Shown here piece after piece: positions 4,612 to 31,178 of a stretch of DNA of 34,660 nucleotides. Under the pieces are notes generated by a model that was given only the letters and a program-made list of their open reading frames with translations, was not told the DNA's origin and searched no databases. Positions within the stretch are counted from its first letter, which is position 1, and the number at the start of each line of letters is the position of its first letter. The stretch comes from ANME-2 cluster archaeon (GTDB taxonomy: Archaea; Halobacteriota; Methanosarcinia; Methanosarcinales; Methanocomedenaceae). Location: the NCBI GenBank assembly GCA_023544495.1, contig JAMJFV010000002.1, positions 1 through 34,660 on the forward strand. The letters are read 5' to 3'. A program made the translations under genes and the position numbers.

Positions 4612-4699
4612 GTCCGAACAGCCCTGTTGCAGCTTTTATTTTGTATTTGTAGGCGTCTGGGAGCTTCCATCTCCAGACATCGGTCTTCTTTATTTAGCC

Positions 4700-14660: not shown

Positions 14661-14756
14661 AGATCAAGTAGTCACTGTTTGATAGTGCAAGAAGTATTAC
14701 TCTGTATCAGTACATAAGGTAACCTTGTGTAGAAGGCACAATTGGAAGTAACCTAC

Positions 14757-15914
14757 ATGCCTGTCGACCCTATCTGCAAACGTGAAGTCCCACTGACAAC
14801 TCCGTATATTACCGAATCAGAAGGACAAACATATTATTTTCATGATCCTGAATGCAAAAAGAAATTCGATGACATGGCAAAGAACATTGTCAGGGTCAAA
14901 CGCAGCCTGAAAGATAAAGAGAAGATATCATTCGGACGGCTGCGAAAGGATATTATCAAAGCAGGTATCTGTGCGGCATGTGGCGCCTGTGCTGCCAGCT
15001 GTCCCTCCATAATCATGGATGGCGAAAAGCCCAAGCTGATAGGGCCGTGTACAGCCTGCAGTATCTGCTACAACCAGTGTCCCCGCACCATTACCACCGA
15101 GAACGGGCTTATCGGCAGGATACGATATCCCTATGCAGCCCGGTCGACCATAAAAGAGATCAGGGGACAGGACGGGGGTGTGGTCACGGCCCTGCTGGCC
15201 TATGCACTGGAGGAAGGCCTCATAGACTGTGCCATCGTGACAGTAAAATCCAGGGATGACCCCTGGAGACCCGTACCTGTCATTGCCACAACCCTCGATG
15301 AATTGATGGAGTCTGCCGGCAGCATCTACACTCACAGTATGACCATCCAGGCCCTTATGAACGCTGTCCAGCAGGGTATGCGGAGTATTGCTTTCGTGGG
15401 ACCATCCTGCAATATCGATGCGGTCTATAAGATATACAAAAGCCCTTACGGATTGCTGCACATGTTCATGCGTGCCAATATTCTTCCCCTGGGCTTGTTC
15501 TGCATGGACACGTTCTCCCATGAAGGTATTGAAGAGTTTGTTGCATCCAAGAACATAAAACTGTCCGAAATTGAGAGCATGAAGATACGGCGGGGAAAGA
15601 TCGAACTGGAAACTGGCGGGGAGACCATGGTGTACTACCTCGGTGAACTTGATCCTTACCGGAGTTCTTCATGCAAGTACTGTACCGACCTGACTGCCGA
15701 GAATGCGGCTATCAGTTTTGGGGGTGTTGGCACTCCTGACGGCTGGACCACGGTATTTACCAGGACTGGCCGGGGGTACGAAATATTCAACGAGGCGGTA
15801 GAGGCTGGTTATATCGAATCCAGGGACCTTGAAGAAAAGGAGATGACAAGGGTATTGAACCTTGCCAGGATGAAAAAGGTCCAGAAGTATGGCGTCATGC
15901 GCAGGGAAAAATAA
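14757..15914 (+). CDS. YHS/TRASH-like domain + 2x[4Fe-4S] ferredoxin + coenzyme F420 hydrogenase/dehydrogenase beta subunit (FrhB/FpoF-like) fusion protein
   Basis: N-terminus MPVDPICKREVPLTTPYITESEGQTYYFHDPECKKKFDD (YHS-like). Cluster motifs CAACGACAASCP and CTACSICYNQCP. FrhB N- and C-domains (DGGVVTALLAYALEEGLIDCAIV; FVGPSCNIDAV). The ATG at 14757 is preferred over the TTG at 14742. Confidence 0.8.
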   Translation: MPVDPICKREVPLTTPYITESEGQTYYFHDPECKKKFDDMAKNIVRVKRSLKDKEKISFGRLRKDIIKAGICAACGACAASCPSIIMDGEKPKLIGPCTACSICYNQCPRTITTENGLIGRIRYPYAARSTIKEIRGQDGGVVTALLAYALEEGLIDCAIVTVKSRDDPWRPVPVIATTLDELMESAGSIYTHSMTIQALMNAVQQGMRSIAFVGPSCNIDAVYKIYKSPYGLLHMFMRANILPLGLFCMDTFSHEGIEEFVASKNIKLSEIESMKIRRGKIELETGGETMVYYLGELDPYRSSSCKYCTDLTAENAAISFGGVGTPDGWTTVFTRTGRGYEIFNEAVEAGYIESRDLEEKEMTRVLNLARMKKVQKYGVMRREK

Positions 15915-16278: not shown

Positions 16279-16616
16279 TAGTATTTTCCCTTCTATGATG
16301 TGCCGGGTGTTTTTTTGGCTAAGCTTGTGATGCTTGTTCTAAGGGCAGGGCACAGAAAGAATATTTATAAACAATGAGTTTCTTTGGCCGGCTTTCATAA
16401 CCAAATCGCATGTACGGATTTTAACCTGCAGTAGGATGTTTTTTACTTTAGTTTATGGGTTGGTTTTCTTTCTTATGGTTTATGGTATGCCATCACGGAC
16501 CGGCCGGATTGGAAATCCGGGGCATCCCGGGACGGATGCTCGTGGTTCAAACATCCAGTTTTCTGGGTTTTTGCTTTTCTTTTCAGGTTAGATTTTTTTT
16601 CAAAAGCAGTTTTTAT

Positions 16617-16679
16617 TTAGCCTAAATATTCTAAGAACTTAATAAGTTCTTTGCCTTTGAATACAGGAAGTTTAGGCAT
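16617..16679 (-). pseudogene. hicA: HicA-type toxin remnant (only the first 20 codons are recognisable)
   Basis: MPKLPVFKGKELIKFLEYLG followed by a stop. This matches the conserved HicA N-terminus (MPKLP..SGKE.IK.LE..GF). Downstream sequence in the same frame is only vaguely HicA-like. Confidence 0.55.
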
Positions 16680-16695
16680 TCTGAGCAACTTCTAT

Positions 16696-16877
16696 TTATC
16701 TAAATCCTACAAATTTATTTAACTCTTCGAGGCATATCTCTACGACTTCTTTTATGTTCTCCAGGGCTTCGTCTATAGTCTCACCGTAGGAATGGCCACC
16801 TTTGAAGTCTGGGCAACTTACTATATATAACCATCTTCGTCAACTTCAATTATTATTGGCAGATGTAATGTTTCCAT
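16696..16877 (-). pseudogene. hicB: HicB/UPF0150-family antitoxin, frameshifted
   Basis: METLHLPIIIEVDEDGYI runs into a stop. After a 1-nt shift it continues VSCPDFKGGHSYGETIDEALENIKEVVEICLEELNKFVGFR. Together these reproduce the HicB N-domain pattern (..EDGGY.A..PDLPGC.S.GET.EEAL.NIKEAIE..LE). Confidence 0.65.
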
Positions 16878-17371
16878 ATCTGTTACTTCCTGTTAGATAA
16901 ACAGGTATTCAAATATTCAGATATTTCGCCTATTGCTGTAATCGATCTCTCCTCTGCTCTTCATATCAAAGCTTTTCCCTACACTTCTGAGCAGCGGATA
17001 GGTCTTATTACAGCGATAATAGTATTAGTAAGCGCGATTGCTGGATTAACTATAAAGAATAAGCATTCTCCGCGTAGGAAGATGGCTCATCTCTTGGTTG
17101 CTGCATTTGGATTAATCTTAACCTTCAATGCCCTGATTAGGCTTGTAAAAAACTTTATTATTTGCAGACTGGCTTTCGTAGAGGCTTGATGGAAGTATGC
17201 TAAAACAATACCGAACAAGAGCGTTTTATTTTTGGTACGACAAGATATAAGAAAAAAAGAACTGCCACCTAAGGTTAACCCACAAACAATAGATAGAATC
17301 AGAATCATTATACTTAAATATGTTAGAGTTGTTTATTTTACCATCAGGATAAATAAAATTGGGGTGAAAAT

Positions 17372-17659
17372 ATGCAAAAAATGACTTTTGAACAGAATAT
17401 GGAAGCCATGAGTAAGATGACTCCTGAAGAAAGAGTAGCAAAAGTGGGGGAACTTACGAAGATTTGCATCTGTGCTGACTGCCCTACTTATGTTGGCACG
17501 GGAGAAAAGAGCTTATTATTCTGTGCAACCGAAAAAAGTAAAATAATAAAAAAAGAGAAAGGCTGTATCTGTCCGGGTTGCCCTGTTTATGAGAATATGG
17601 GTCTGAGATGGGATTACTATTGCACCAGAGGTTCTGGTAAAGAACAGGCTGGGAAATAA
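17372..17659 (+). CDS. DUF2769-type cysteine-rich protein
   Basis: ICICADCPTY...LLFCA....KGCICPGCPVY....DYYC matches the DUF2769 pattern as I remember it. SD site ggggtgaaaatATG. Confidence 0.7.
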   Translation: MQKMTFEQNMEAMSKMTPEERVAKVGELTKICICADCPTYVGTGEKSLLFCATEKSKIIKKEKGCICPGCPVYENMGLRWDYYCTRGSGKEQAGK

Positions 17660-17666
17660 TAACAGC

Positions 17667-18896
17667 ATGGCTAAATGGCTCTGTACGGTCTGTAATATCT
17701 ATATTTACAATGAAGAGAAAGGGGATTCTCTTACAGGATTAGAACCTGAAACAAAAGTTTCGGACTTTCCTGATTCCTGGAGATGTCCCGTCTGCGGAGT
17801 AGCCAGAGACAAGCTTGTTCAGATTTCCGAAGAGGAATACTGGCTAAAAGCTAAGGCTTATACGGATTTTATTGAGAAAAAGGAGCAAATAAGAAGCATT
17901 TTAGTTGGGGTGGATAATCCACAAACAACGCCTGAATTAAGACAGGAATATGGAAAACCTCTGGGCTTGCGGGGAATAGGTCAGGGACTCGGCTATCTTG
18001 CCAATTTTAAAGCACTCTCAAAATACAGTTTGAAAAAAAGGCTGATAACAGAGCATGAAGACCCTGTTACAGAAACCACGTTCCTGGGGAAAACGATATC
18101 CATCCCTATACTTGGGGCTCCTATGAGCGGTTTGAGCTATGTGAGCAATATAACCGAAGAGGACTTTGCTTATAATATCCTGGAAGGATGCAAAGTCGCA
18201 GGTACTATTGGATTTACAGGAAACACATCTAAAGACTATGAGATTATGCATCCTGCAATAATGGCTCTTAAAAGAGTCAAAGGGCACGGGGTAAACATTT
18301 TCAAGCCACAGTCGCAGGAAGTCCTTTCAGAGCTGATAAAGCAATCCGAGAATGAAAAAACAGTGGCTGTAGGTGTGGATATTGACGGCGCAGGTTCTGT
18401 AAACGTCGCGCTTTCCGGAAAGCCTGTTTTCAGGAAAACGATCGATGAACTGAAAGAACTCAAAAAATCAACAATGCTTCCTTTTATTGTAAAAGGTATC
18501 ATGTGCGAGGAGGATGCACTTGTTGCTGTTGAAGCAGGGGTTGATGTGATAGGCATTTCCAATCATGGCGGCAGGGTTATAGATTCAACTCCGGGGGTTG
18601 CGGATGTTCTTCCTGAAATTGTGAAAGCCGTAAGAGAAACGGAGGAAGGTAAAAGAGTTGTGATCACGGCAGACGGGGGAGTAAGAACAGGATTTGATGC
18701 TGTCAAGATGTTAGCTCTTGGTGCTGATTTTGTCTTGGTGGGAAGACCGCTGGCAAGAGAGGCAGTTTCAAGCGGGGTAGAAGGAGTCAAGAGAATTTTG
18801 GAAAATTTGAAAACAGATTTTAAGATCGCAATGATTATGACTTCATGCAATACGCTGGAAGACATAAATGAAAACATTCTTATCAAGAGCGGTTAG
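17667..18896 (+). CDS. Rubredoxin-domain fused to an FMN-dependent alpha-hydroxy-acid dehydrogenase/oxidase family enzyme
   Basis: N-terminus WLCTVCNIYIYNEE...DFPDSWRCPVCGV (rubredoxin CxxC...CPxCG). The C-terminal TIM barrel has ISNHGGRVID and ADGGVRTGFDAVKMLALGADFVLVGRP. Confidence 0.85.
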   Translation: MAKWLCTVCNIYIYNEEKGDSLTGLEPETKVSDFPDSWRCPVCGVARDKLVQISEEEYWLKAKAYTDFIEKKEQIRSILVGVDNPQTTPELRQEYGKPLGLRGIGQGLGYLANFKALSKYSLKKRLITEHEDPVTETTFLGKTISIPILGAPMSGLSYVSNITEEDFAYNILEGCKVAGTIGFTGNTSKDYEIMHPAIMALKRVKGHGVNIFKPQSQEVLSELIKQSENEKTVAVGVDIDGAGSVNVALSGKPVFRKTIDELKELKKSTMLPFIVKGIMCEEDALVAVEAGVDVIGISNHGGRVIDSTPGVADVLPEIVKAVRETEEGKRVVITADGGVRTGFDAVKMLALGADFVLVGRPLAREAVSSGVEGVKRILENLKTDFKIAMIMTSCNTLEDINENILIKSG

Positions 18897-19239: not shown

Positions 19240-20607
19240 TCAGTATACCGATACAGATTTGATGTTCATGAATTCATAGAGCCCGAATTTAGAGAGCTCT
19301 CTTCCAATACCGCTTTTCTTCACTCCCCCGAAAGGAAGGCGCGGGTCGGACTTGACGAGTGAATTTACAACTACAACGCCTGCTTCAATCTCTTTTGCAA
19401 GACGAAGTGCTTTGTCCCTGTCCTCGCTCCATATACTTGCCCCAAGCCCAAGCTCTGATTCATTAGCCACTTTTATCGCGGAAGACTCATCTTTCACTGG
19501 AATTACAGGCGCCACAGGACCAAAGGTCTCCTCCTTTAACACCTTCATTTCCTGTGTTACATTTGAAAGTACGATAGGAGAATAGAAGAACCCATTCTTT
19601 TGAAGTCTTCCTCCCTCAAGCAGAGCTTTTGCTCCTTTCGATAAAGCATCCTTCACCTGCTCTTCAAGGAGTTCTATCTGCTCCTCCCTCACAAGCGGGC
19701 CTATATCAGTATCAGGATCCATAGGGTCGCCGACTTTAAGGTTAGAAGCATGCTCAACAAATTTTGTGGTAAACTCTTCCGCTATACTTTCTTCGACTAT
19801 GAAGCGTTTTGCGGCGATACAGCTCTGACCTGCATCGAGAAACCTGCTGGCAACAGCAATCTTCGCAGCTTTTTCAATATCGGCATCCGCAAGAACAATG
19901 AAAGGATCGCTTCCACCAAGTTCGAGGACGAACTTTTTCATGTTCCGCCCGCAAACCTCTGCCACCTTCTGTCCTGAGGAAACACTCCCTGTCAAGGATA
20001 CTGCGTCTATCTCCTTTCTCTTGATAAGCGATGATGCAGTTGATCCATCTATCAGTAATGTCTGGAAGACCCCGTCGGGAAAACCTGCCTCTGAAAAAAT
20101 CTTTTCGAGTTCAAGTGCGCATAAGGGAACGTAGCTTGAATGTTTGAGCAATACAACATTCCCGCCTGATAGTGCCGGGGAAGCGAAACGCAAAGCCTGC
20201 CAGAATGGAAAGTTCCAGGGCATGATACACAGTATCGTTCCACGCGGTTCAAATGAAACATACGCTTTCTGTGCATCTGTTTCCACGATCTCATGCTCCA
20301 AAAACCGCTCAGTATTCTGCGCGAAGTACTCAAGAGCCCATGCGCATTTTTCAACCTCGGGTATTGATTCTTTTATGGGTTTACCCATTTCCGATGTGAT
20401 AATTTCACCAAGTTCCTTCTTCCGTCTTCGCAGCACATTCGCAGCGTTTGTAAGATATTCTGCCCTGTCAGAGATATCCAGGTTCTTCCATTCTGAAAAG
20501 GCATTCCTGGACTTTCTAACTGCTTCGTTTATCTTTTCCTGTGAATAAAGTTCGAATTCCCTGTTAATGTCCCCTGTGGCAGGGTTAATAGAGACCATCT
20601 TTTTCAT
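19240..20607 (-). CDS. NAD(P)-dependent aldehyde dehydrogenase, succinate-semialdehyde dehydrogenase-like
   Basis: 455 aa. Contains SINPATG..., LELGGSDPFIV (catalytic Glu region), AGQSCIAAKRF (catalytic Cys) and EETFGPV. Confidence 0.9.
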   Translation of the reverse strand: MKKMVSINPATGDINREFELYSQEKINEAVRKSRNAFSEWKNLDISDRAEYLTNAANVLRRRKKELGEIITSEMGKPIKESIPEVEKCAWALEYFAQNTERFLEHEIVETDAQKAYVSFEPRGTILCIMPWNFPFWQALRFASPALSGGNVVLLKHSSYVPLCALELEKIFSEAGFPDGVFQTLLIDGSTASSLIKRKEIDAVSLTGSVSSGQKVAEVCGRNMKKFVLELGGSDPFIVLADADIEKAAKIAVASRFLDAGQSCIAAKRFIVEESIAEEFTTKFVEHASNLKVGDPMDPDTDIGPLVREEQIELLEEQVKDALSKGAKALLEGGRLQKNGFFYSPIVLSNVTQEMKVLKEETFGPVAPVIPVKDESSAIKVANESELGLGASIWSEDRDKALRLAKEIEAGVVVVNSLVKSDPRLPFGGVKKSGIGRELSKFGLYEFMNIKSVSVY

Positions 20608-20611
20608 TGTT

Positions 20612-23386
20612 TCAACTCCTTTTATTACTTAATATATTTCTCAGGAATGTATGCAGGATGCCGCCATTTCTATAAAATTCCATTTCAATTGGTGAGTCCA
20701 GTCTTGCCATGACGTTAAATTTCTTTTCTTTTCCATTTTCATCTCTTGCAACCACTTGTAGCTCTCCCCCCGGCTCCATGGTACTTATGCCCAGGATATT
20801 CAATGTTTCACCTCCCTTGATGCCCAGCCCATCTGCGTTCTCCTCTTTCATGAACTGCAGCGGCAGAACGCCCATTCCCACGAGGTTGCTCCTGTGGATA
20901 CGCTCAAAGGATTCAGCTATTACCGCGCTGACCCCAAGAAGACATGTGCCCTTGGCAGCCCAATCGCGGGAACTGCCTGTGCCGTATTCTTTCCCTGCTA
21001 TGATGACCAGAGGGATGTCATTCTTTTTGTAAAGCATCGCTGCATCGTAAATTGTCATCTCTTTTCCAGAAGGAAAATAACGAGTCCATCCTCCATCTTT
21101 ATCAGGAACCAGCCTGTTCCTGAGATTTATGTTTCCAAATGTTCCCCGCATCATTACCTCATGATTTCCCCTCCTTGACCCGAAGGAATTGAAATCTTTC
21201 GGAGCCACCCCACAGGATATCAGATACTGTCCTGCAAGAGAATCTTGAGAAAATTCCCCGGCCGGGGAAATGTGATCCGTGGTGATGCTGTCTCCCATAT
21301 ATGCAAGTACACGCAGACCCCTCAAGTCGCCCTTTTCAGGAAGCTTTACCAGGAAATCCTTGAAGAAAGGAGGCTCCTGGATATATGTTGATCCGCTGTC
21401 CCATTCATAGAGTTTGCCGGAAGGGACTTTAAGATTCTCCCATAGCTCTGTGCCGCCTGATATCTCTGAATACTGTTCAAACAAGTGAGGGCTGATGGTG
21501 TTTTTTATAACCTGCCGGATTTCCTCCTGATCTGGCCAGATATCGTTTAGATATACAGGCTCGCCATTCGGGTCGTATCCGATGGGTTCTGTCTTAAGAT
21601 CGATATCTACAGTACCAGATATAGCATATGCTACCACCAATGGAGGCGAGGAAAGGTAATTTGCTTTGACGAGCGGGTTAATCCTGCCCTCAAAATTACG
21701 GTTTCCACTTAATACCGAAGCGACTATCAGATCATCTTCTTTCACCGCCCTGGCAATGTTCTCCGGGATCGGACCGCTGTTGCCTATGCATGTCGTACAT
21801 CCATATCCCACGAGATGGAATCCCAGAGCCTCAAGATAAGGCATGAGTCCTGAGTTCACAAGGTATTCGCTGACAACACGCGAACCCGGAGCAAGGCTCG
21901 TTTTAACATATGGCTTGACCTTGAGTCCTCGCTTTACAGCGTTTTTTGCGAGAAGACCCGCTCCGATCATCACAGAAGGGTTTGAAGTGTTGGTGCATGA
22001 GGTTATGGCTGCGATTACTATAGAGCCGCTTTTTACCGGGACTTTCATCTCATATTTTGCGTCAAGCTCTTCCCTTCCAGTATGTTCATGCTCGACCCTG
22101 AAGCTTCCCCCCTCCCCCAGCCAGCGGTGATATTCATGATCCGCTTCTACCTCGGTTTTTTTACGGAGAAACGTCTCCTCCATGGCCTTATGGAAACTTG
22201 CTTCCATTTCATCAAGAGGTATACAATCCTGAGGTAGTTTCGGTCCAGCAAGGCTTGGTTCAACGGTGCTCATGTCAAGTTCCAATATCTCGCTAAACAG
22301 AGGTTCGGGACTTTCATCGGTGCTGAAGAGACCCTGCTCAATTGCATATAATTTAACCAGATTAACGTGCTCCTTTTTCCTTCCCGTAATCAGGAGATAC
22401 TTTAACGTTTCATCATCGATTGGAAAGAATCCCACAGTTGCGCCGTATTCGGGAGCCATATTTGAGATGGTAGCCCTTTCGGGCAGGCTCAATGTGCTCA
22501 AACCTGGCCCGTAAAATTCAACGAATTTGCCCACAACTTTGTGCATCCTTAATATCCGGGTAATGGTAAGAACAAGATCGGTGGCCGTCACTCCATCCTT
22601 CAATTCACCATAAAGCCTGAACCCCACAACTTCAGGAACAGGCATGTGGTATGGCTGGCCCAGCATAACCGCTTCTGCTTCTATCCCTCCAACACCCCAT
22701 CCCAGCACTCCCAGGCTATTTATCATCGTGGTATGGGAATCCATCCCGACAAGGGTATCAGGATAAGCGACAGGTTCGCCGTTCACTCTCTTGACCTGTA
22801 CCACTGATGCAAGATATTCAAGATTTACCTGATGGACTATTCCTCTGCCCGGCGGAACGACACGAAAATTATCAAAAGCCTGCTGCCCCCATCGAAGAAC
22901 GGCATACCTCTCGCGGTTCCGCTCAAGTTCCTTTTTCTCATTATAAGCACTGGCGTACGAGGTGCCGTAATAATCCACCTGGATGGAATGGTCAATAACC
23001 AGGTCTGCTGGTATAACAGGATTGATCTTTGCCGACTCGCCCCCAAGCCTCTGAACGGCCGACCTCATGGCAGCCAGGTCAACCACTGCGGGAACTCCTG
23101 TGAAATCCTGCAGAAGCACCCTTGCAGGAATAAAAGGTATTTCGCGCTCAACTCTATTTTTTGGATCCCATCCTGCTAATGATTCAACATCCTTTTCGGT
23201 TATAATTCGCCCATCCAAATGCCGCAAGAGCGCTTCAAGCAGTATCCTGATGGAGTATGGAAAGAGAGAGATTTTTCCTAACCCCATCTCCTCAAGTCTG
23301 CTGAGGCGGTAGATTGCTACACGACCCCTGCCAGTATCGATAAAATCTTTAACCCCAAATGGATTCATATCAGCACTCATATCCAT
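20612..23386 (-). CDS. acnA: Aconitate hydratase A (AcnA/IRP type)
   Basis: 924 aa. Contains LPYSIRILLEALLR, DHSIQVD, GMDSHTTM, ITSCTNTSNP, GCTTCIGNSG and the swivel domain GKEYGTGSSRDWAAKG. Confidence 0.95.
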   Translation of the reverse strand: MDMSADMNPFGVKDFIDTGRGRVAIYRLSRLEEMGLGKISLFPYSIRILLEALLRHLDGRIITEKDVESLAGWDPKNRVEREIPFIPARVLLQDFTGVPAVVDLAAMRSAVQRLGGESAKINPVIPADLVIDHSIQVDYYGTSYASAYNEKKELERNRERYAVLRWGQQAFDNFRVVPPGRGIVHQVNLEYLASVVQVKRVNGEPVAYPDTLVGMDSHTTMINSLGVLGWGVGGIEAEAVMLGQPYHMPVPEVVGFRLYGELKDGVTATDLVLTITRILRMHKVVGKFVEFYGPGLSTLSLPERATISNMAPEYGATVGFFPIDDETLKYLLITGRKKEHVNLVKLYAIEQGLFSTDESPEPLFSEILELDMSTVEPSLAGPKLPQDCIPLDEMEASFHKAMEETFLRKKTEVEADHEYHRWLGEGGSFRVEHEHTGREELDAKYEMKVPVKSGSIVIAAITSCTNTSNPSVMIGAGLLAKNAVKRGLKVKPYVKTSLAPGSRVVSEYLVNSGLMPYLEALGFHLVGYGCTTCIGNSGPIPENIARAVKEDDLIVASVLSGNRNFEGRINPLVKANYLSSPPLVVAYAISGTVDIDLKTEPIGYDPNGEPVYLNDIWPDQEEIRQVIKNTISPHLFEQYSEISGGTELWENLKVPSGKLYEWDSGSTYIQEPPFFKDFLVKLPEKGDLRGLRVLAYMGDSITTDHISPAGEFSQDSLAGQYLISCGVAPKDFNSFGSRRGNHEVMMRGTFGNINLRNRLVPDKDGGWTRYFPSGKEMTIYDAAMLYKKNDIPLVIIAGKEYGTGSSRDWAAKGTCLLGVSAVIAESFERIHRSNLVGMGVLPLQFMKEENADGLGIKGGETLNILGISTMEPGGELQVVARDENGKEKKFNVMARLDSPIEMEFYRNGGILHTFLRNILSNKRS

Positions 23387-23778
23387 TTATTCGCTTTTAA
23401 CTCCTTCCCCAGACCTCATTATTCTATCTATCAAACCATACTCCACTGCATCCTCTGCTGACAAGAAGAAGTCCCTGTCCGTATCTTTCTCAATGACCTC
23501 TATGGGTTGCCCCGTGTGATGGACCAGGATTTCATTGAGATGTTCTTTGACCCTTGCCATCTCTTTTGCCTGAATAGCGATATCCGATGCCTGTCCCTGT
23601 GCGCCCCCGAGGGGCTGGTGAATCATCACCCTTGCATTGGGAAATGCCATCCTTTTTCCCTTTGCTCCCGCTGCCACACCTGTGAGGAGTATTATCTGGT
23701 CGTCCAGCAGGCGGGAATAAATATCCAGCGTATGCGGGGGGTTTGCTCTGATACATAAAGCATTTTTGGAATTACCAT
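23387..23778 (-). pseudogene. clpP: ClpP protease subunit relic: N-terminal frameshift plus an internal deletion removing the catalytic Ser region
   Basis: aaaggaggacaaaacaATG gives [15 protein letters not shown]. The frame is then lost at a C6 run. It resumes as [17 protein letters not shown] joined directly to [22 protein letters not shown]...[20 protein letters not shown]. By comparison with the canonical family layout as I recall it, roughly 75 residues that normally contain the GxAASMG serine are absent. Confidence 0.75.
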
Positions 23779-24297: not shown

Positions 24298-24825
24298 CTA
24301 TCTAAGGTCACTTGACCATACGTAATCATTGGTTTTGTCTTTGAAGATATCTTTTGGCAGAGCGTGGCAGTCGATGCATCCTTCTACCTTCCCCTCGGCA
24401 TCTATCGTGCCATCTGGCTGGTACTTAGCCCAGAACCAGTCATTGTGAGCCGGATCGTAGCCTTTTTCTTTGTACATAACTGTTATTGCGGCCAGTTTTT
24501 TGTCAGGACCATAGTTTTCTTTTACTATTATGCTCTCTTCAGGCAGGATTCCTTTTTTGCCTTCTATTGCTGCAAAAGCGTCATCGTTCACGTATGTTGT
24601 CAGAAAAGCACCATGCGGTTCGCTTGGTTTTTCTGTTGACTTTGGATATATTTCACCCGTGCCGGGCCACTTCTTCCAGTTTTTATAGTTCTCTTTTATT
24701 ATAAAGTCGTATACAGATTTCCCATCAGCCTTGAGTTCTGTCTCTGGTGGCGCACTTACACAGCCCAGAAAAATTGACACCATAAATATAGCCAATATTG
24801 CGTATGCAATGCTTTTCATTTCCAT
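24298..24825 (-). CDS. Cytochrome P460 / c'-beta family haem lipoprotein
   Basis: Lipobox SIFLGC. HGAFLTTYVNDDAF...LPEESIIVKE...ITVMYK....NDWFWAKY.PDG...G....CIDCH (a single CxxCH near the C-terminus) follows the P460-family pattern. The GGGAG SD site favours the ATG at 24825; the track start is 24840. Confidence 0.7.
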   Translation of the reverse strand: MEMKSIAYAILAIFMVSIFLGCVSAPPETELKADGKSVYDFIIKENYKNWKKWPGTGEIYPKSTEKPSEPHGAFLTTYVNDDAFAAIEGKKGILPEESIIVKENYGPDKKLAAITVMYKEKGYDPAHNDWFWAKYQPDGTIDAEGKVEGCIDCHALPKDIFKDKTNDYVWSSDLR

Positions 24826-25036
24826 AATTTCTACTCCCATCTATTTATTCATTGAGATGACATATATAACTATCTTTCTCGAACTATTAATTGACCTTCC
24901 ATTCCTAAATCCCTGTGATTTGCCACTTCTCACCACATCTTAGAATATTCCTGATTTATCCGCAACAAATTCCATAACCTGATTTTTCCCGGAAGACGCC
25001 ACGTTAACCCTTTGATCATATCCTTCCACAAACAGG

Positions 25037-25426: not shown

Positions 25427-26125
25427 TCAGTACCCCGGAAAATTTTCACTATGTATCATAGCGTCTTGAATTTTCAATGTCTTAAGAATTTCAATTGAAC
25501 TTGTTACCAGGGACGGTGGACCGCATACATAGAAAACACATTCTTTATAATCGGGTATCTCTTCTTCAATAATCTGAACGTCTATATGGCCTCTCCTTCC
25601 TTTCCATTTCTCATCCGGCTGGGACAGTGTATGGATTACCCTGAGGTTTTGATTTGCCTTTTCAAGGCGGTCCAACTCTTCCTTGAAAACTATGTTTTCT
25701 TCATTCCTGTTTCCGAATAAAAAAGTAATACGGGAGTTCATTCCCTTATCCGTGCAGTATTTAATCATGCTCCTGAGAGGCGTTATGCCGATGCCCCCTG
25801 TTATCATCACTACTCTGGGATATTCGCCTTTGAAGGTAAAATCTCCATAGGGAGCATTAAGGTATGCCCAGTCTCCGATTTTGAGCATGTCAAGAGCGAC
25901 TGAGAACTCATGGTCTGTGATCTTTTTTGTGAATTCAATGAACTCTTTTTCTGTCGGACTGCTTGATATCGTAAAATGCTTTGTGATTTTTTTACCCTCG
26001 TTCAGAATTGTTACGAATAAAAATTGACCGGGATCGTAGTCAAACCCCTTCGGTCTCCTGAACCTGAAGCTCTTTACATCTGGTGTCCGTTTTATTATCT
26101 CTTCCACTCTGGTTTCAAATTTCAT
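25427..26125 (-). CDS. FNR-like FAD/NAD(P)-binding oxidoreductase (PyrK/sulfhydrogenase-gamma type without the C-terminal Fe-S domain)
   Basis: Contains VKSFRFRRP..FDY.PGQFLFV, HFTISSSP (RxxS-like FAD site) and ITGGIGITPLRSM (the NAD(P) GGxGxxP motif). Confidence 0.8.
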   Translation of the reverse strand: MKFETRVEEIIKRTPDVKSFRFRRPKGFDYDPGQFLFVTILNEGKKITKHFTISSSPTEKEFIEFTKKITDHEFSVALDMLKIGDWAYLNAPYGDFTFKGEYPRVVMITGGIGITPLRSMIKYCTDKGMNSRITFLFGNRNEENIVFKEELDRLEKANQNLRVIHTLSQPDEKWKGRRGHIDVQIIEEEIPDYKECVFYVCGPPSLVTSSIEILKTLKIQDAMIHSENFPGY

Positions 26126-26128
26126 AAA

Positions 26129-26332
26129 TCAACCAACCTCTTTTCTACTGCTATCGAACTCTGCCGCTTCCTTCGCTAAAAAGTACCCCATCACCGTTCT
26201 GATGCTGACAGTAGCACCAAGGAAGAGAATCTCTTCCCGGCTGGGAGCAACAATCGTCCTCAAGATGTATGTGGACAAGAGCCCAGGGGGAAAACCTGAC
26301 TTTTTTGACCTTTTCTTAATGGGTACGACCAT
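26129..26332 (-). CDS. Hypothetical small protein (67 aa)
   Basis: It fills the gap between the GltB-like and FNR-like genes (18 nt and 3 nt spacers). No recognisable motif; it may not be translated. Confidence 0.3.
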   Translation of the reverse strand: MVVPIKKRSKKSGFPPGLLSTYILRTIVAPSREEILFLGATVSIRTVMGYFLAKEAAEFDSSRKEVG

Positions 26333-26350
26333 TGTATATGCCTCTATTCC

Positions 26351-27835
26351 CTAAACATGTGTGATCTCCGTATGATTTGAGATCTCAGAATTTGTCGTAC
26401 ACAGATCCTTTATGCTCAATTTATGCACATCATCATTTCCCGTCAATCGTGCAAAATCCTTTAATTCCTCCGTGGAAACCCTTAAAAAATTTTCCAATTT
26501 CTTGGCAGAGTACTCAACTTTTAACCTTCCCCTTAATTCCGGGTTATGTGTAGTGACGCCGACAGGGCATTTACCCGTGTCGCACAGCCTGTACTGCTGG
26601 CATGCGCATGCCATCAGCGCTGCAGTTCCTATTGCAACAGCGTCAGCCCCTAAAGCTAACGCTTTAATGAAATCCGAGGACACCCGAAGACCTCCTGTGA
26701 TAATAAGGGATATGTCTTTTATCCCTTTCCTGTCAAGATATTTCCTTGCCCTGTATAGGGCAAAAACAGTAGGTACTGACGTTGCCTGTTTTACGAACCT
26801 GGGCGAAGCCCCGGTTGCGCCCGGTCTTCCATCGATGGTTATAAAATCAGGTCCCGCATAGGTCGCTATTTCCAGGTCATCTTCTATATGACCTGCTGCG
26901 ATTTTTATCCCGATGGGCTTTCCATCGGATTTTTCTCTTAGCCAGTCCACTTTCTTTTTCAGATCATCCCTGTTTCTTATGTCTTCAAAATGAGACGGAC
27001 TCACAATATCGGTCCCTTCAGGGAAACCTCTGATTTCCGCAATCTCCTGGGTCACCTTCTCTGCAGGCAAATGACCTCCCATGCCTGGTTTTGACGACTG
27101 ACCGATCTTTATTTCTATGGCATCCACTTTCCTGAGGTTCTCATCAGTGACGCTGTACCTGTTGGGCACGTATTCAAAAATGTATCTATAGGCATTGTCA
27201 AGAGACTCCTTCATAATCCCGCCTTCTCCTGAACCCATGGCGGTTCTGGCAGCAGCGCTCCCTTTTGCTAAAGCAGTTTTAACTTCTTTTGACAGAGCGC
27301 CAAAAGACATATGGGTTACATAAATAGGTGTTTCGATTATAAGAGGATGCTTCGCCGCAGGACCTATTGTGGTTCTGGTATTCACAGGCTCGTCTTTATT
27401 TAAGGGAATTTTCGCCAGTTGAGCACCTTTTATCAGAATGTCATCCCATGAGAGCACATTTTTTGTCGTCCTCATTGGTTCGATGATTGACTCCCCGGTC
27501 ACGGAAATCGTATGGATATCCGCCATGTATATTTCCAGGTCATCCCTGTCCCGTTTCCATTCTGCCAGATATCCGCCCAGATCAATTTTAGCAGTGGAAA
27601 TTGTCACTTTATTTTTGGCTCCGCAATGGGGGCAGGTCATGATCTCATCTATCTGCGCAATCTCCTCTTCCTCTTTGACAGGCTTTAAGTGTGATTTATC
27701 CGACGCACAAATGGGGCACTTCCACTCATCAGGGAAGTCTTCAGGTTTTGTGCCGGGTTTTATCCCTGTAAGCGAGTTCCCCCGCGTATCATCATATTCG
27801 AAAACATTGCAAACATCGCATCTGTATTGTGTCAT
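26351..27835 (-). CDS. Rubredoxin-domain + zinc-ribbon + glutamate synthase FMN/Fe-S domain (GltB domain-2-like) protein
   Basis: N-terminus YRCDVCNVFEYDD...DFPDEWKCPICAS, then TCPHCGAKNK. The core has SSKPGMGGHLPAEKV, ITIDGRPGATGASP, TGGLRVSSDFIKALALGADAVAIGTA and the cluster motif CDTGKCPVGVTT. Confidence 0.85.
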   Translation of the reverse strand: MTQYRCDVCNVFEYDDTRGNSLTGIKPGTKPEDFPDEWKCPICASDKSHLKPVKEEEEIAQIDEIMTCPHCGAKNKVTISTAKIDLGGYLAEWKRDRDDLEIYMADIHTISVTGESIIEPMRTTKNVLSWDDILIKGAQLAKIPLNKDEPVNTRTTIGPAAKHPLIIETPIYVTHMSFGALSKEVKTALAKGSAAARTAMGSGEGGIMKESLDNAYRYIFEYVPNRYSVTDENLRKVDAIEIKIGQSSKPGMGGHLPAEKVTQEIAEIRGFPEGTDIVSPSHFEDIRNRDDLKKKVDWLREKSDGKPIGIKIAAGHIEDDLEIATYAGPDFITIDGRPGATGASPRFVKQATSVPTVFALYRARKYLDRKGIKDISLIITGGLRVSSDFIKALALGADAVAIGTAALMACACQQYRLCDTGKCPVGVTTHNPELRGRLKVEYSAKKLENFLRVSTEELKDFARLTGNDDVHKLSIKDLCTTNSEISNHTEITHV

Positions 27836-27854
27836 TTATATCTACTTCCTCGAA

Positions 27855-28844
27855 TCACCTGAAACCGATATATAATAAGGCGATCGCAAGAATGACAAAA
27901 AGCGCTGAGAGCACTTTTTCCAGAACTGCGGTATTCATTCTTGCTGCGACATACGGTGCAAGCTGACCGCCGATTATGACCGCAGGAACTGTCATGGCAA
28001 TAATGTTCCACGGTGTCTCTACACCCCCAGTTGCAGACGCCCTTAAAAGATGTGCGGTTGACGCCACAATGGCTGTTCCCGCCACGATAATATGATTTGT
28101 TCCGACTCCTACTTTAGCCGGAATGCCCGAGATGATCATTGAAACCACGCCCATTTCCCCGATTCCGAACCCCGACACCCCCTGGAATATACCTCCCAGA
28201 GAATACCCGAACAGCCTGGTCCTGTATGCACACCTGCAGTAATTGTAAACTTTTCCATTCCTGTCTGTAAGTGTTACATTTTCTGGAGTTGCCTTATGTT
28301 GATGTGTGACGGTAAGGCTTTTTTTGGATGCCAGTTCTTCCCCAAATGCCCTGATCCTTTCAGCATGCCCTAAAGAATAGACTGAAATAAGCAATGCAAA
28401 GCTTATGAGAAAATAGATGATTTTTTCCGGGAAATAGAAGGATACAACTGAAGAAATTATAACCACAGGCACCGCTCCGGTAAGAGAGCGAAAAGCCATT
28501 TTCTTATCTACGAGGCCAAATCGCATAAAGGCAAAAGTGGAACTTGATATCCCGAAGGATTCGGTTATCAATCCCAGCATCACGCTCTGCCCCGGAGTGA
28601 GCCCGAATGCAAGTGCAGGGAATACGAGTGCAAAAAAAGGGACAAAAAGGGCCGCGCCGCTTATGCCCACCGTATTTACGACAGTTGCGATCACGATGGC
28701 AACAGGGAACATCCACCAGAATTCAGTCCAGTAACCAGCATCACTCTTGACAATACCTGTCAGGATAAAAAGAAAAATCGGGATTATGAGAAGAATTAAA
28801 TAATTCTCGTATTCAAGTGCTTTATCTGATATTCGCTTTAGCAT
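27855..28844 (-). CDS. TauE/SafE (TSUP) family anion permease
   Basis: A multi-TM protein with two internally similar halves: GISGAALFVPFFALVFP..., GLITESFG, and GFGIGEMGVVSMI in the second half. A roughly 50-aa hydrophilic loop with Cys/His residues links them. Confidence 0.8.
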   Translation of the reverse strand: MLKRISDKALEYENYLILLIIPIFLFILTGIVKSDAGYWTEFWWMFPVAIVIATVVNTVGISGAALFVPFFALVFPALAFGLTPGQSVMLGLITESFGISSSTFAFMRFGLVDKKMAFRSLTGAVPVVIISSVVSFYFPEKIIYFLISFALLISVYSLGHAERIRAFGEELASKKSLTVTHQHKATPENVTLTDRNGKVYNYCRCAYRTRLFGYSLGGIFQGVSGFGIGEMGVVSMIISGIPAKVGVGTNHIIVAGTAIVASTAHLLRASATGGVETPWNIIAMTVPAVIIGGQLAPYVAARMNTAVLEKVLSALFVILAIALLYIGFR

Positions 28845-28929
28845 GAAATCGTTACTTTTTGATACTACAAACTCTCATTTATCCCGCCAGAGTGCGATTG
28901 TAATTTAACTTTCACTCTTCTCAAGCTTC

Positions 28930-29034
28930 TTATTTGGACTTTTCATGTTCTTTTTTTGCGTGCTCCATTAGCTCTGATTCAGACTCAAATGTAGCACCGC
29001 ACATATTACACTTGTATTGCTTTTCTTCAGCCAT
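28930..29034 (-). CDS. Micro-protein (34 aa) with a classical C2H2 zinc-finger pattern
   Basis: Not in the ORF track (under 60 aa). SD site gggaggtgacaagatATG. MAEEKQYKCNMCGATFESESELMEHAKKEHEKSK fits Y-x-C-x2-C-x3-F-x5-L-x2-H-x4-H exactly. Confidence 0.55.
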   Translation of the reverse strand: MAEEKQYKCNMCGATFESESELMEHAKKEHEKSK

Positions 29035-29129
29035 ATCTTGTCACCTCCCTTTGGCAGCAGTAGCTTTTCATTGCGATATATTATATTCCCTCACTGATAT
29101 TTAACGCACATTTGCATTAAGTCCTATTT

Positions 29130-29363
29130 TCACGGTGCTTTCCCAATATCACAGAAGTACATATCCTTCAGCTTATATCTGGCATATACCATACAAGCAG
29201 GGCATTTACAGCCTTTTTTTACGATTTTTTCTGGCGATTTACCCCTTGCACAGAACAGCATTGGCTGCTGGGGATACGGCAGACTTGGACAGGTTCCGCA
29301 GTAATTCATGCAGATAGCCAGATTTTCCTTTGTATCATCAACTGGCATTTCAAATACCTCCAA
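29130..29363 (-). CDS. DUF2769-type cysteine-rich protein (second copy)
   Basis: ICMNYCGTCPS....MLFCA.....KKGCKCPACMVY......MYFC shows the same Cys spacing as 17372..17659. Confidence 0.7.
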   Translation of the reverse strand: MEVFEMPVDDTKENLAICMNYCGTCPSLPYPQQPMLFCARGKSPEKIVKKGCKCPACMVYARYKLKDMYFCDIGKAP

Positions 29364-29375
29364 AAGAATTAAAAA

Positions 29376-29888
29376 TCACATCAGCATTTTCTTAAACATA
29401 TTCCGGACCATCATTCTCTTCAGGATGAAATAATCCTGTGTAGCAGCCATCATCGCACGCTTTTCCATCATCTTCCTATCTTCAGGCCACGCTGACATTA
29501 TTTTCTTCAAAGCTCCCATCAGGATTTCTCTCTTTTCTTTTGGAAGTTTTGTAATTTGATCGGTCCTGGTTTTAACAACCTTGATCCTGTCTTCTTCAGA
29601 CAGTTCTGATATCCCGTCGAGCATGTCGGTTATTGCGGCTATCCTTTTGTCTTCTGGCAGAACGGAAAATTGCTCCATCCGTGCCCCCAGGATCTGACGT
29701 CTGTCTTCCTCGGGTTTTGATGCCAGCATTTGCATCATGTCGGTTATTTGTGCGAGCTTTTCAGCTTTTGCCTTGCGTTCCTGGCATGCAGGGCACTTCT
29801 CAAAATGTTCTTCGAAAGACGCTGCATCTTTACCGGCACATTCTTCACATTCTTTTGCTAACTTTTCTAATTCTTCTCTTGCAGTCAT
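29376..29888 (-). CDS. Helical-repeat protein with an N-terminal CxxC...CxxC site, hypothetical
   Basis: CEECAGK...FEKCPACQ, then repeated about 25-aa helical units marked by KPEEDR / LPEDKR / LSEEDR / LPKEKR / WPEDRK. It ends 12 nt before the DUF2769 gene. Confidence 0.55.
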   Translation of the reverse strand: MTAREELEKLAKECEECAGKDAASFEEHFEKCPACQERKAKAEKLAQITDMMQMLASKPEEDRRQILGARMEQFSVLPEDKRIAAITDMLDGISELSEEDRIKVVKTRTDQITKLPKEKREILMGALKKIMSAWPEDRKMMEKRAMMAATQDYFILKRMMVRNMFKKMLM

Positions 29889-30172: not shown

Positions 30173-30532
30173 ATGGCTGAACCAAAAATATTGATAGTAT
30201 ATGCATCGAGAACAGGTAACACGGAAAAACTCGCACAGGCGGTCGCTGAAGGGGCAAGGAGTGCTGGCGGGGTCAGTGTCGAGTTGAAGAGAGCAAGGGA
30301 TACTAAACCCTCAGATGCAGATGCTGACGCTTTTGCATTTTGGTCTCATTCGGCTTTTGAATATATGGCAGGGGAGCTTAAAAGCCTATTTGAAGATTTT
30401 TATATTGTAAGGGATAAACTGGCAGGCAAACCTGTACTGCTTTTCACCACAGGACAGGGAGGGCAGAGTTCGACTCTGGCATCGATAGACAGGGACGTGG
30501 GTGTATTCAATCCGGGTCAGGACTGGTATTAA
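30173..30532 (+). CDS. Flavodoxin-family protein (short, 119 aa)
   Basis: SD site gggaggtaaaatATG. KILIVYASRTGNTEKLAQAVAEG is the FMN phosphate-binding loop T/S-x-T-G-x-T. The C-terminal third looks divergent or possibly truncated. Confidence 0.7.
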   Translation: MAEPKILIVYASRTGNTEKLAQAVAEGARSAGGVSVELKRARDTKPSDADADAFAFWSHSAFEYMAGELKSLFEDFYIVRDKLAGKPVLLFTTGQGGQSSTLASIDRDVGVFNPGQDWY

Positions 30533-30533
30533 A

Positions 30534-31178
30534 TTATTTAATTATTTTAATAAATCCATCTCTGATTTTATGCCCTATTTCATTTGCTATCTCAATGACA
30601 TCCTTCTGGTCTTCTATAGTCGTATATTTATCCTTCGAAGGCACAGCACCTTTGCTGAACAATAACGGAACTGCGCTTATCTTGCAGGTACCTCCATATC
30701 CGCATGAAAGACATGAGACGTTCCCGGTTCCGCTGAGCTTACCGATGACATTAATTCCTTCCATTTCCATAAAAGCAGCAATCTGATCCATGGCATGATC
30801 TACACTTGGTATTCCTCGTCCAATCCCGACTGCCACAGCTACTCCAATTTTACCTTTATTTAGCATTTTTTGATGATGCATGGAGTACATCCGTTCTGTC
30901 AGCATCTTAGTTCTTGAGTCAAGAGTGCCGTAAGTAGGATAGCCACCAATAATTAGAGCAGCACATTCTTTGATCTTATTTTCGATTATATACCAGTCGT
31001 CCTGCTGCTTGCAGATGTTGTCCCCGGCACAGCCAAGACATGCCCTGCATGGATGGATATCGTACTCTGAAAGTTTAATAAATTCATAATCAAGGCCTGT
31101 AGCTTCAAGCACTGTTTTAATCAGCCTGTCGGTATTGCTGTTTTTAACCGGACTCCCGCTTATTCCTAACACTTGCAT
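30534..31178 (-). CDS. isf: Iron-sulfur flavoprotein (Isf family, NADPH-dependent FMN reductase fold)
   Basis: MQVLGISGSP.KNSNTD, the compact cluster motif CRACLGCAGDNIC (CX2CX2CX5C), and IIGGYPTY. Confidence 0.85.
   Translation of the reverse strand: MQVLGISGSPVKNSNTDRLIKTVLEATGLDYEFIKLSEYDIHPCRACLGCAGDNICKQQDDWYIIENKIKECAALIIGGYPTYGTLDSRTKMLTERMYSMHHQKMLNKGKIGVAVAVGIGRGIPSVDHAMDQIAAFMEMEGINVIGKLSGTGNVSCLSCGYGGTCKISAVPLLFSKGAVPSKDKYTTIEDQKDVIEIANEIGHKIRDGFIKIIK

Follow-up and report, generated by a model that had tools for sequence, protein, structure and literature searches.

The genome of an ANME-2 cluster archaeon carries, on contig JAMJFV010000002.1, a 34,660-nt stretch (the window, by which the whole stretch is meant) in which two genes for small cysteine-rich proteins of the DUF2769 family occur near genes for two enzymes bearing an N-terminal rubredoxin (Rd) domain, one fused to an FMN_dh barrel (Rd-FMN_dh) and the other to a Glu_synthase domain (Rd-Glu_synthase). 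The positions of the corresponding open reading frames (ORFs) and all four domain assignments had been put forward in an earlier sequence-only reading of this DNA, and were confirmed by Pfam (Table 1). Comparison of the window with fetched genome or metagenome loci (designated by L-numbers) revealed a directional and close linkage of DUF2769 genes to genes for Rd-type domains, regardless of the catalytic domain, and a physical DUF2769-Rd-type partnership is the simplest reading of this gene linkage. In what follows, +1 and -1 denote the genes immediately downstream and upstream, respectively.

Table 1. Features of the two DUF2769 copies and their neighbors in the window.
Feature	Position	Strand	Description	Evidence
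DUF2769_1	17372..17659	+	95 aa, stand-alone	Pfam PF10967, E=8e-18, 65.2 bits (cutoff 22.8)
Rd-FMN_dh	17667..18896	+	N-terminal Rubredoxin and FMN_dh barrel	Pfam
Rd1, Rubredoxin domain of Rd-FMN_dh	17667..17834	+	CTVCN...CPVCG	Rd hidden Markov model (HMM), E=2e-28
Aldehyde dehydrogenase (copy 1 context)	19240..20607	-	Convergent with Rd-FMN_dh	Pfam
Aconitase (copy 1 context)	20612..23386	-	924 aa, convergent with Rd-FMN_dh	Pfam
FNR-like FAD/NAD(P)H reductase	25427..26125	-	Downstream of Rd-Glu_synthase	Pfam FAD_binding_6 and NAD_binding_1
67-aa ORF		-	Between Rd-Glu_synthase and FNR-like reductase	
Rd-Glu_synthase	26351..27835	-	494 aa	Pfam Rubredoxin (residues 3-48), E=7e-15; Glu_synthase, E=1e-99
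Rd2, Rubredoxin domain of Rd-Glu_synthase	27668..27835	-	CDVCN...CPICA	Rd HMM, E=1e-29
TauE/SafE membrane protein	27855..28844	-	329 aa	Pfam PF01925, E=7e-24
DUF2769_2	29130..29363	-	72-77 aa	Pfam PF10967, E=3e-14, 53.6 bits (cutoff 22.8)
p170	29376..29888	-	170 aa, upstream of DUF2769_2	Weak Pfam zf-HC2 and DUF3106 matches only

In copy 1, the start of Rd-FMN_dh lies 7 nt after the stop codon of DUF2769_1, the pair making up an operon of two genes, and the small gene is thus directly upstream of, co-directional with and close to the Rd-type gene, as proposed for the module. The DUF2769_1 protein displays two N-terminal helices followed by an eight-Cys core of two CxCxxCP-x13-C repeats, and Rd-FMN_dh matches Rubredoxin at residues 3-49 (E=4e-14) as well as FMN_dh (E=5e-58, 197 bits). 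The same gene order is kept in 13 Methanoperedenaceae loci, with spacers of 1-18 nt, and the closest relatives of the DUF2769 proteins and of both Rd-enzymes belong to Candidatus Methanoperedens, which points to an archaeon of ANME-2d type as the source of the window; one locus, L012, is syntenic with the window at 92-97% identity. Copy 2 does not strictly reproduce the module, as the TauE gene intervenes between DUF2769_2 and Rd-Glu_synthase, with a gap of 285 nt after DUF2769_2. The pairing of a DUF2769 protein with an Rd-enzyme, claimed by the sequence-only reading for both copies, is therefore direct in copy 1 and not in copy 2.

The two Rd domains reach 52.8 and 55.3 bits against the Rubredoxin family PF00301 (cutoff 23), and both retain the four Cys. 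They align without gaps at 44-46% identity, and the consensus that had been quoted for them proved correct (46% in the ungapped alignment). By identity, neither domain stands nearer to the other than to textbook rubredoxins, since Rd1 is 51% identical to the rubredoxin of C. pasteurianum and Rd2 49% to that of D. gigas; the mean Rd identity between the two enzyme families is 45%, and that to canonical rubredoxins 42-49%. Taken at its word, the sequence-only reading would count this against its own proposal, although the outcome is ambiguous in view of the characters that the two domains share. What sets the pair apart is a shared derived signature of an indel and residues: CxxCN (Asn for Gly) instead of the canonical CxxCG, a one-residue insertion (CN[IV][YF]xY versus CG-YxY) relative to the Cp, Dv, Pf and Dg rubredoxins, and an FPD motif not found in canonical rubredoxins. 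Judged by these shared derived characters, Rd1 and Rd2 are assigned to a subtype within the rubredoxin family, to which the stand-alone rubredoxin encoded upstream of the Methanococcoides Rd-Glu_synthase (L082; 77% identical to Rd2) also belongs.

The gene neighborhoods were surveyed from the DUF2769 side in 70 loci of species-representative genomes, amounting to 1.03 Mb. According to Pfam, an N-terminal Rd-type domain is present in 33 of the 61 same-strand +1 genes, comprising 12 proteins with Rubredoxin plus FMN_dh, 19 flavodoxin-like flavin mononucleotide (FMN) reductases with an N-terminal rubrerythrin-type rubredoxin-like domain, and 2 ferredoxin:thioredoxin-reductase-like (FTR-like) proteins with that same rubredoxin-like domain. 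Among the -1 genes (n=60), no Rd-type family was found within the 25 commonest families, radical SAM being the top one with 5. Using HMMs for both Rd types, 36 Rd-type domains were found to start just downstream of DUF2769 (34 of 70 loci), and only 6 lie elsewhere in the surveyed sequence. These figures support the earlier proposal that DUF2769 and the Rd domain occur together beyond chance, and the co-occurrence enrichment is strong and extends over five scaffolds whose Rd-type N-terminus follows DUF2769, namely FMN_dh, flavodoxin-like FMN reductase, FTR-like, pyruvate-oxidase-like thiamine pyrophosphate (TPP) enzyme and Glu_synthase. The sequence-only reading had named an Rd-fused FMN TIM barrel as the common factor; because TPP and FTR-like partners exist, the feature shared by DUF2769 partners is the Rd-type domain and not the FMN barrel.

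Pairs of DUF2769 and Rd-type genes were found in archaea (Methanoperedenaceae, Methanomicrobiales, Methanomassiliicoccales, and metagenome-assembled genomes, MAGs, labelled as Nano-, Woese- and Aenigmarchaeota) and in bacteria (Aminicenantes and Eubacteriales). An apparent restriction to Methanoperedenaceae, obtained by tblastn with the window Rd domains and by the canonical-Rd HMM, was rejected as a sensitivity artefact because Pfam on the +1 ORFs showed short RUBY_RBDX-type domains. The FMN-reductase pairs abut or overlap and three pairs are 49-58 nt apart, the exact DUF2769-partner spacers hinging on start-codon choice; the tight spacing of the Rd-FMN_dh and FMN-reductase pairs suggests co-translation. 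Further, DUF2769 proteins cluster by partner, with an Rd-FMN_dh clade, an Rd-like FMN reductase clade (21/23), and a mixed clade formed by the partners of Rd-TPP, Rd-Glu_synthase and Rd-like FTR.

From the opposite side, Rd-Glu_synthase orthologues were picked by taxon label, blind to gene context, and DUF2769 was found within three genes of Rd-Glu_synthase in 6 of 7 contexts, the window counted. In L078/L079, the order is Pyr_redox_2, Rd-Glu_synthase, p170, DUF2769_2 and TauE, and on the other strand a second DUF2769 gene is followed by an Rd-like FMN reductase; in L080/L081, the succession is p170, DUF2769_2, DUF1622, another DUF2769, Rd-TPP (pyruvate-oxidase-like), Rd-Glu_synthase and aminotransferase. 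The Methanomassiliicoccales loci (L083/L084) show aminotransferase, DUF2769 and Rd-Glu_synthase, the latter two separated by 6 nt, whereas two DUF2769 genes lie at most two genes away from Rd-Glu_synthase in Methanoculleus (L094), and a CDGSH/Fer4_19 protein stands between DUF2769 and Rd-Glu_synthase in an Aenigmarchaeota-labelled MAG (L095/L096). In the remaining context, that of Methanococcoides (L082), there is no DUF2769 and a stand-alone rubredoxin occupies the slot upstream of Rd-Glu_synthase, which suggests that DUF2769 and a small electron carrier may be interchangeable at this position. Small Fe-S modules (CDGSH/Fer4_19, ferredoxin) are fused to Rd-Glu_synthase or flank it, which fits an electron-wire context: some Rd-Glu_synthase proteins (P0172-P0176, P0181, P0183 and others) reach 720-750 aa with added CDGSH and Fer4_19 domains, and in L096 the CDGSH/Fer4_19 module is the separate gene at 4332-4991.

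DUF2769 is a rare family: an exhaustive profile search of 1.84 billion representatives gave 646 clusters (50% identity), and the 150 best matches are all short (61-189 aa). In an alignment of close relatives, C32, C34, C37, C51, C65, C67, C70 and C84 of DUF2769_1 are invariant; two CxCxxC motifs, nearly always followed by Pro, are present in 158 of 186 members with a modal spacing of 13/13/13, and His is absent from half of the members. Homology between its two halves (hhalign 97%, E=1e-10) identifies DUF2769 as an internal duplication of CxCxxCP-x13-C. In the AlphaFold 2 (AF2) model of DUF2769_1, a Cys core rich in loops comes after two N-terminal helices, and the pLDDT, 54.6 with a shallow alignment of 23 sequences, rises to 95.7 with 101 sequences (pTM 0.84). 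No relative was found in the PDB by sequence search or by Foldseek (best E=3.8). A relationship of DUF2769 to rubredoxin or Rd-like domains was rejected (profile-profile probability below 4%), as was the HypA/HybF label that one source automatically gives to a homologue, there being no HypA match in Pfam or NCBIfam; Fer4 families gave no match to either DUF2769 protein at E<=0.01 and differ in motif spacing, and NCBIfam holds no model for DUF2769, p170 or the TauE-like protein. A few members carry Tat-like (KRRDFF, KRRSFF) or lipoprotein-type leaders (P0356, P0374, P0418, P0350 and P0365), which implies that some DUF2769 proteins may work outside the cytoplasm, probably exported in a folded state; Tat-like leaders are typical of cofactor-loaded exported proteins. 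In the literature, a DUF2769 small protein of Methanosarcina mazei was detected by proteomics, under heat stress only (PMC12704099). Elsewhere the family receives a passing mention as a structurally unclassified cluster, and nothing bearing on DUF2769 was found in the literature on rubredoxin-fused FTR, GltB or Methanoperedens enzymes.

With regard to the partner enzymes, Rd-FMN_dh combines a match to PF01070 with the His-Arg pair of SNHGxR and the Lys of VKG expected of alpha-hydroxy-acid dehydrogenases/oxidases, and its VKGI, SNHGGR and DGGVRTG motifs align to those of L-lactate oxidase (7f20), glycolate oxidase and flavocytochrome b2. Residues 110-250, in the N-terminal barrel half where substrate-binding Tyr and Arg would be expected, align weakly (5-6 bits), and the barrel is predicted from its sequence to be of a divergent alpha-hydroxy-acid-oxidising type. 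Rd-FMN_dh is otherwise an ordinary member of a large family annotated as 'alpha-hydroxy-acid oxidizing protein', and no NCBIfam equivalog reached its cutoff for either this protein or Rd-Glu_synthase. In relatives of the barrel at 66-70% identity (P0142-P0156), a Rieske [2Fe-2S] domain replaces the rubredoxin, so that the N-terminal position behaves as a swappable electron-transfer module; no DUF2769 neighbor was seen in the one Rieske-FMN_dh context examined (L077, 6001-7344). Aconitase and/or citrate synthase genes are linked to Rd-FMN_dh in L006, L012, L017, L075 and L076, and to DUF2769_1 in L005. This repeated link to genes of the tricarboxylic acid (TCA) branch hints that the 2-hydroxy-acid substrate could be related to the TCA cycle, as are malate, 2-hydroxyglutarate and isocitrate. 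Citrate synthase and an aconitase of ~920 aa are divergent beside Rd-FMN_dh in Methanolobus and Methanococcoides, and in L006 and L017 citrate synthase lies downstream of it. Upstream of DUF2769_1, positions 16279-17371 form an AT-rich (GC about 0.41), gene-poor stretch of ~1.1 kb without a convincing ORF, and an Rfam scan of the window gave nothing relevant, no family reaching the gathering threshold in that stretch.

Rd-Glu_synthase matches Glu_synthase (PF01645) with 334 bits over profile positions 37-367 of 369 and retains the C-x5-C-x4-CP Fe-S motif. Over its whole length, Pfam detects Rubredoxin and Glu_synthase only, with no amidotransferase and no GXGXG domain, and the score against NF008730 is 138 bits for a cutoff of 1047; on these grounds it is classed as a stand-alone GltB domain-2 protein and not as a complete glutamate synthase (GltS). 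The two catalytic barrels of the window had been called unrelated, a description that does not hold, as each matches the Pfam model of the other at about 1e-8 and the two are therefore distantly related. The Rd-Glu_synthase family is very large and conserved: all 8000 candidates that were scored lie at E<=1e-10, and identity is 70% or more for the 120 best homologues listed, which span several methanogen orders. Among archaeal stand-alone GltB domain-2 proteins, which the sources name 'rubredoxin' or 'glutamate synthase-related protein', the window copy is a typical, undistinguished member, the novelty being its recurrent DUF2769 neighbor. Downstream, the FNR-like reductase matches NCBIfam models of reductase components, all below cutoff, and is a candidate electron donor linked to pyridine nucleotides; the slot beside Rd-Glu_synthase is filled in L078 by a Pyr_redox_2 flavoprotein instead. 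The 128-aa ORF at 25037-25423 matches only the N-terminal third of class I/II aminotransferases. Since intact aminotransferases of ~440 aa flank Rd-Glu_synthase in L080 and L083, this ORF appears to be what is left, as a pseudogene, of a conserved association between the two enzymes.

DUF2769_2 is 39% identical to DUF2769_1, falls in its own clade and shows Cx3CxxCP, a known family variant, as first motif; its true start is probably ATG 29348 rather than TTG 29363, because its orthologues begin with MPVEDTKEN. The p170 protein displays an N-terminal CxxC-x14-CPxC, invariant in the eight orthologues compared; behind it come about five 'LSxEE(D/R)R' repeats, which are helical. Its gene lies directly upstream of DUF2769_2 in the window, in L078, in L080 and in all 8 loci (L085-L092) returned by a metagenome scan that used three DUF2769_2 orthologues as query, and Rd-Glu_synthase is present near the p170-DUF2769_2 pair in only three arrangement types; in L078, TauE directly follows DUF2769_2. 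The N-terminal helices of DUF2769_1 (17372-17470) include 'MSKMTPEER', which resembles the p170 repeats and is absent from DUF2769_2, and p170 plus DUF2769_2 might thus represent the longer DUF2769 form divided between two proteins. A short flavodoxin gene and two tandem FMN_red (iron-sulfur-flavoprotein-like) genes, conserved in L085, adjoin p170/DUF2769_2 at 30173-31906, and none of their three products has an Rd-like N-terminus.

We tentatively propose, with somewhat less than even confidence, that DUF2769 is a small metalloprotein that serves as a dedicated electron-relay partner docking on N-terminal Rd-type domains; metal binding, docking, electron transfer and the direction of flow are all properties that we infer. 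In copy 1, the lactate/glycolate-oxidase-like barrel of Rd-FMN_dh would oxidise a 2-hydroxy acid at FMN, which would hand single electrons to the iron centre of the fused rubredoxin, standing in as acceptor for O2 or for the haem of flavocytochrome b2. The co-translated DUF2769 would then dock on the Rd domain and, through one or two metal centres of its own, relay the electrons to the redox pool of the cell. For copy 2 the proposal is looser: a p170-DUF2769_2-TauE cassette would act beside Rd-Glu_synthase and the FNR-like reductase, and the relay may run reductively. We favor an electron relay because the partners are homologues of O2- or carrier-dependent oxidoreductases, in which a one-electron port would be expected at the N-terminus, because that N-terminal module is swappable (Rieske for Rd in the FMN_dh homologues), because a stand-alone rubredoxin replaces DUF2769 in one lineage, and because small Fe-S modules gather at Rd-Glu_synthase or are fused to it. 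The DUF2769 proteins themselves point in the same direction, given their eight invariant Cys, the lack of His in half of them, the confident compact AF2 model, the Tat-like leaders of a few, and the detection of the M. mazei small protein by proteomics (PMC12704099). With greater reserve, as possible though rather doubtful, we suggest that DUF2769 represents an as yet unrecognised kind of small metal or Fe-S protein, has a fold without counterpart in the PDB and docks specifically on N-terminal Rd-type domains, 'Rd + DUF2769' being a portable electron port on oxidase-type enzymes of anaerobic archaea and bacteria. Such a port would serve flavin, TPP and Fe-S enzymes (lactate-oxidase-like, pyruvate-oxidase-like, GltB-like, WrbA-like and FTR-like), replacing O2 or soluble carriers.

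Several observations weigh against the electron relay. The survey loci were chosen by one peptide pattern, which biases them to DUF2769_1-like sequences, and many are kin by descent. For about half of the DUF2769 genes surveyed, no Rd-type domain lies within 10 kb, and the DUF2769 genes of L001 and L002 are orphans; in M. nitroreducens (L005), DUF2769_1 is kept and citrate synthase directly follows it in place of Rd-FMN_dh. Conversely, Rd-FMN_dh lacks a DUF2769 neighbor in Methanolobus, Methanococcoides and a third lineage, all outside Methanoperedenaceae, and the partnership is therefore frequent and not obligate. No DUF2769-enzyme fusion of the Rosetta-stone kind was found in 240 enzyme homologues or in the 150 best DUF2769 representatives, the FNR-like or Pyr_redox_2 reductases beside Rd-Glu_synthase could alone be the redox partner of the Rd domain, and a co-diversified DUF2769 paralogue per enzyme is no less to be expected of a structural subunit or a maturation factor than of a diffusible carrier. 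As to copy 2, in L085 (6400-11750, compared with 25427-29130 of the window), a ~93% identical relative, TauE is split into two ORFs and Rd-Glu_synthase is missing: an aldehyde dehydrogenase, a class-III aminotransferase and a saccharopine-dehydrogenase-like gene replace it, a trio that also adjoins the second DUF2769 pair of L078. The copy 2 region is thus being rearranged between closely related strains. Since p170 is always upstream of DUF2769_2 and Rd-Glu_synthase is missing in L085, DUF2769_2 is tied primarily to p170, itself a Cys4 protein, and its adjacency to Rd-Glu_synthase is recurrent at the family level and locally labile.

Gene linkage identical to that behind the electron relay would also be left by a maturation factor or metallochaperone that delivers Fe to the fused Cys4 site, or bars Zn from it, and carries no electrons in catalysis. 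The existence of an own DUF2769 paralogue per Rd-enzyme class is explained as well by such a client-specific assembly factor as by the relay, and the occurrence of Rd-FMN_dh without DUF2769 in some genera indicates that DUF2769 is dispensable for catalysis as such. The HypA/HybF Zn/Ni metallochaperones, like DUF2769, are small Cys-rich proteins encoded beside the enzyme possibly served; one source indeed labels a DUF2769 homologue as HypA/HybF. However, their Cys pattern and fold differ from the Cys pattern and the predicted fold of DUF2769, and no HypA or other chaperone family matches it in Pfam or NCBIfam. The near-zero spacers imply roughly equimolar synthesis, and in Methanococcoides the equivalent slot is filled by an electron carrier. 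To our knowledge, rubredoxins generally acquire iron without a dedicated chaperone, and overall we regard this alternative as unlikely. Less probable still is a regulatory thiol or metal switch, Zn-finger-like, that senses redox, heat or metal stress and modulates the Rd-enzyme or p170/TauE. It draws on the sole expression datum, the exclusive detection of the protein under heat stress in M. mazei (PMC12704099), on the constant company of DUF2769_2 and p170, whose N-terminus weakly resembles a zf-HC2 anti-sigma zinc finger, and on the location of some orphan DUF2769 genes among thioredoxin, DsbA and Msr genes; yet the zf-HC2 match is below threshold (E=0.006), DUF2769 contains no DNA-binding or partner-switching domain, and a general stress sensor leaves unexplained both the strict +1 direction and the five enzyme classes that share an Rd-type domain.

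The absence of any direct functional link, with inherited synteny and redox-gene islands making the two copies of the window coincidental neighbors, is already disfavoured and seems to us quite improbable. The 13 Rd-FMN_dh pairs do come from a single family, Methanoperedenaceae, copy 2 is split by TauE and lost in the 93%-identical relative, about half of the DUF2769 loci have no nearby Rd-type domain, and P460, flavodoxin and FMN_red genes make the right half of the window a general redox island. Descent alone would not readily place DUF2769 upstream of five unrelated or distantly related scaffolds that share only an Rd-type N-terminus, in distant archaea and bacteria, nor produce the strong asymmetry of the survey (33 of 61 at +1, no Rd-type family among the commonest at -1, and 6 Rd-type domains over the other ~1 Mb), nor bring so rare a family near 6 of 7 sampled Rd-Glu_synthase genes. 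The least probable alternative, to which we attach very little weight, is that the DUF2769 ORF acts mainly in cis, as a leader or coupling ORF whose translation, maybe Cys- or metal-sensitive, sets that of the downstream Rd-enzyme; very short or overlapping junctions and the fixed upstream position would suit it. Against it stand the constraint at the protein level (eight invariant Cys, internal duplication, a confident fold and 646 clusters), the many orphan DUF2769 copies without a downstream Rd gene, and the detection of the protein itself by proteomics (PMC12704099).

For the electron relay that we favor, known systems offer partial parallels. Yeast L-lactate:cytochrome c oxidoreductase, flavocytochrome b2, also fuses an N-terminal one-electron domain to an FMN_dh-family barrel, which aligns to Rd-FMN_dh at E of about 1e-22 with its VKGI/SNHGGR/DGGVRTG motifs, and a small separate metalloprotein takes the electrons, cytochrome c in that case and DUF2769 in our proposal. 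It differs in having a b5 haem instead of the rubredoxin Fe(Cys)4 site; the N-terminal barrel half of Rd-FMN_dh is divergent, and the partner proposed here is an eight-Cys protein of the same operon. Flavorubredoxin NorV/NorW and rubredoxin/rubredoxin-reductase pairs similarly show an Rd fused to an FMN enzyme and a redox partner encoded adjacently; the flavorubredoxin model NF003954 weakly matches the window Rd domains (E=7e-7), and Pyr_redox_2 or FNR-like reductases flank some Rd-Glu_synthase genes. In NorV/NorW, however, the Rd is C-terminal and the partner is a FAD reductase of ~380 aa, whereas here the Rd is N-terminal and the neighbor is a Cys-rich protein of 60-100 aa. Clostridial-type 2x[4Fe-4S] ferredoxins resemble DUF2769 as small stand-alone proteins encoded beside redox enzymes, with a Cys core of ~55 residues, eight Cys, an internal duplication and Cys-Pro after each motif; they are distinguished by CxxCxxCxxxCP versus the CxCxxCP-x13-C of DUF2769, which has no Fer4 and no PDB match.

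Other genes of the window include, at 14742-15914, a homologue of the FrhB/FdhB-like F420-dependent oxidoreductase beta-subunit, which carries a YHS (metal-binding) domain at its N-terminus and also a ferredoxin-like segment. The 96-aa ORF at 23387-23677 covers no more than the C-terminal half of ClpP (positions 94-180 of a profile of 182). Since matches of about the same length are present in L005 and L012 (91-92% identity), this ORF is either a gene conserved in a split or frameshifted state or an artefact of the start assigned to it. A cytochrome P460-like gene (24298-24840; PF16694, E=7e-11), whose product has a hydrophobic N-terminal segment, maybe a signal peptide, is 97% conserved in L012 and has a 60%-identical copy in L085. 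Archaea do have C/D-box sRNAs; the borderline Rfam match to SNORD36, a C/D-box snoRNA, at 33969-34046 (30.2 bits, gathering score 30, E=0.48) is probably due to chance.

Both enzymes of the window are ordinary members of annotated families and as such already known; what is new, and was found neither in the literature searched nor in any annotation, is the rule that DUF2769 travels with rubredoxin-type domains. A family that had no assigned function is thereby given a specific, testable context, in that it follows the Rd-type domain. If the partnership is physical, DUF2769 would be a new small metalloprotein class with a fold unseen in the PDB, and would account for the re-wiring, in strict anaerobes such as the methane-oxidising Methanoperedens, of oxidase-type flavoenzymes and TPP enzymes so that they use internal one-electron acceptors. 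It would also be the missing redox partner for the reconstitution of widespread uncharacterised enzymes, particularly the rubredoxin-fused 'glutamate synthase-related' protein of methanogens, and the association itself offers a simple rule by which hundreds of orphan genes can be annotated.

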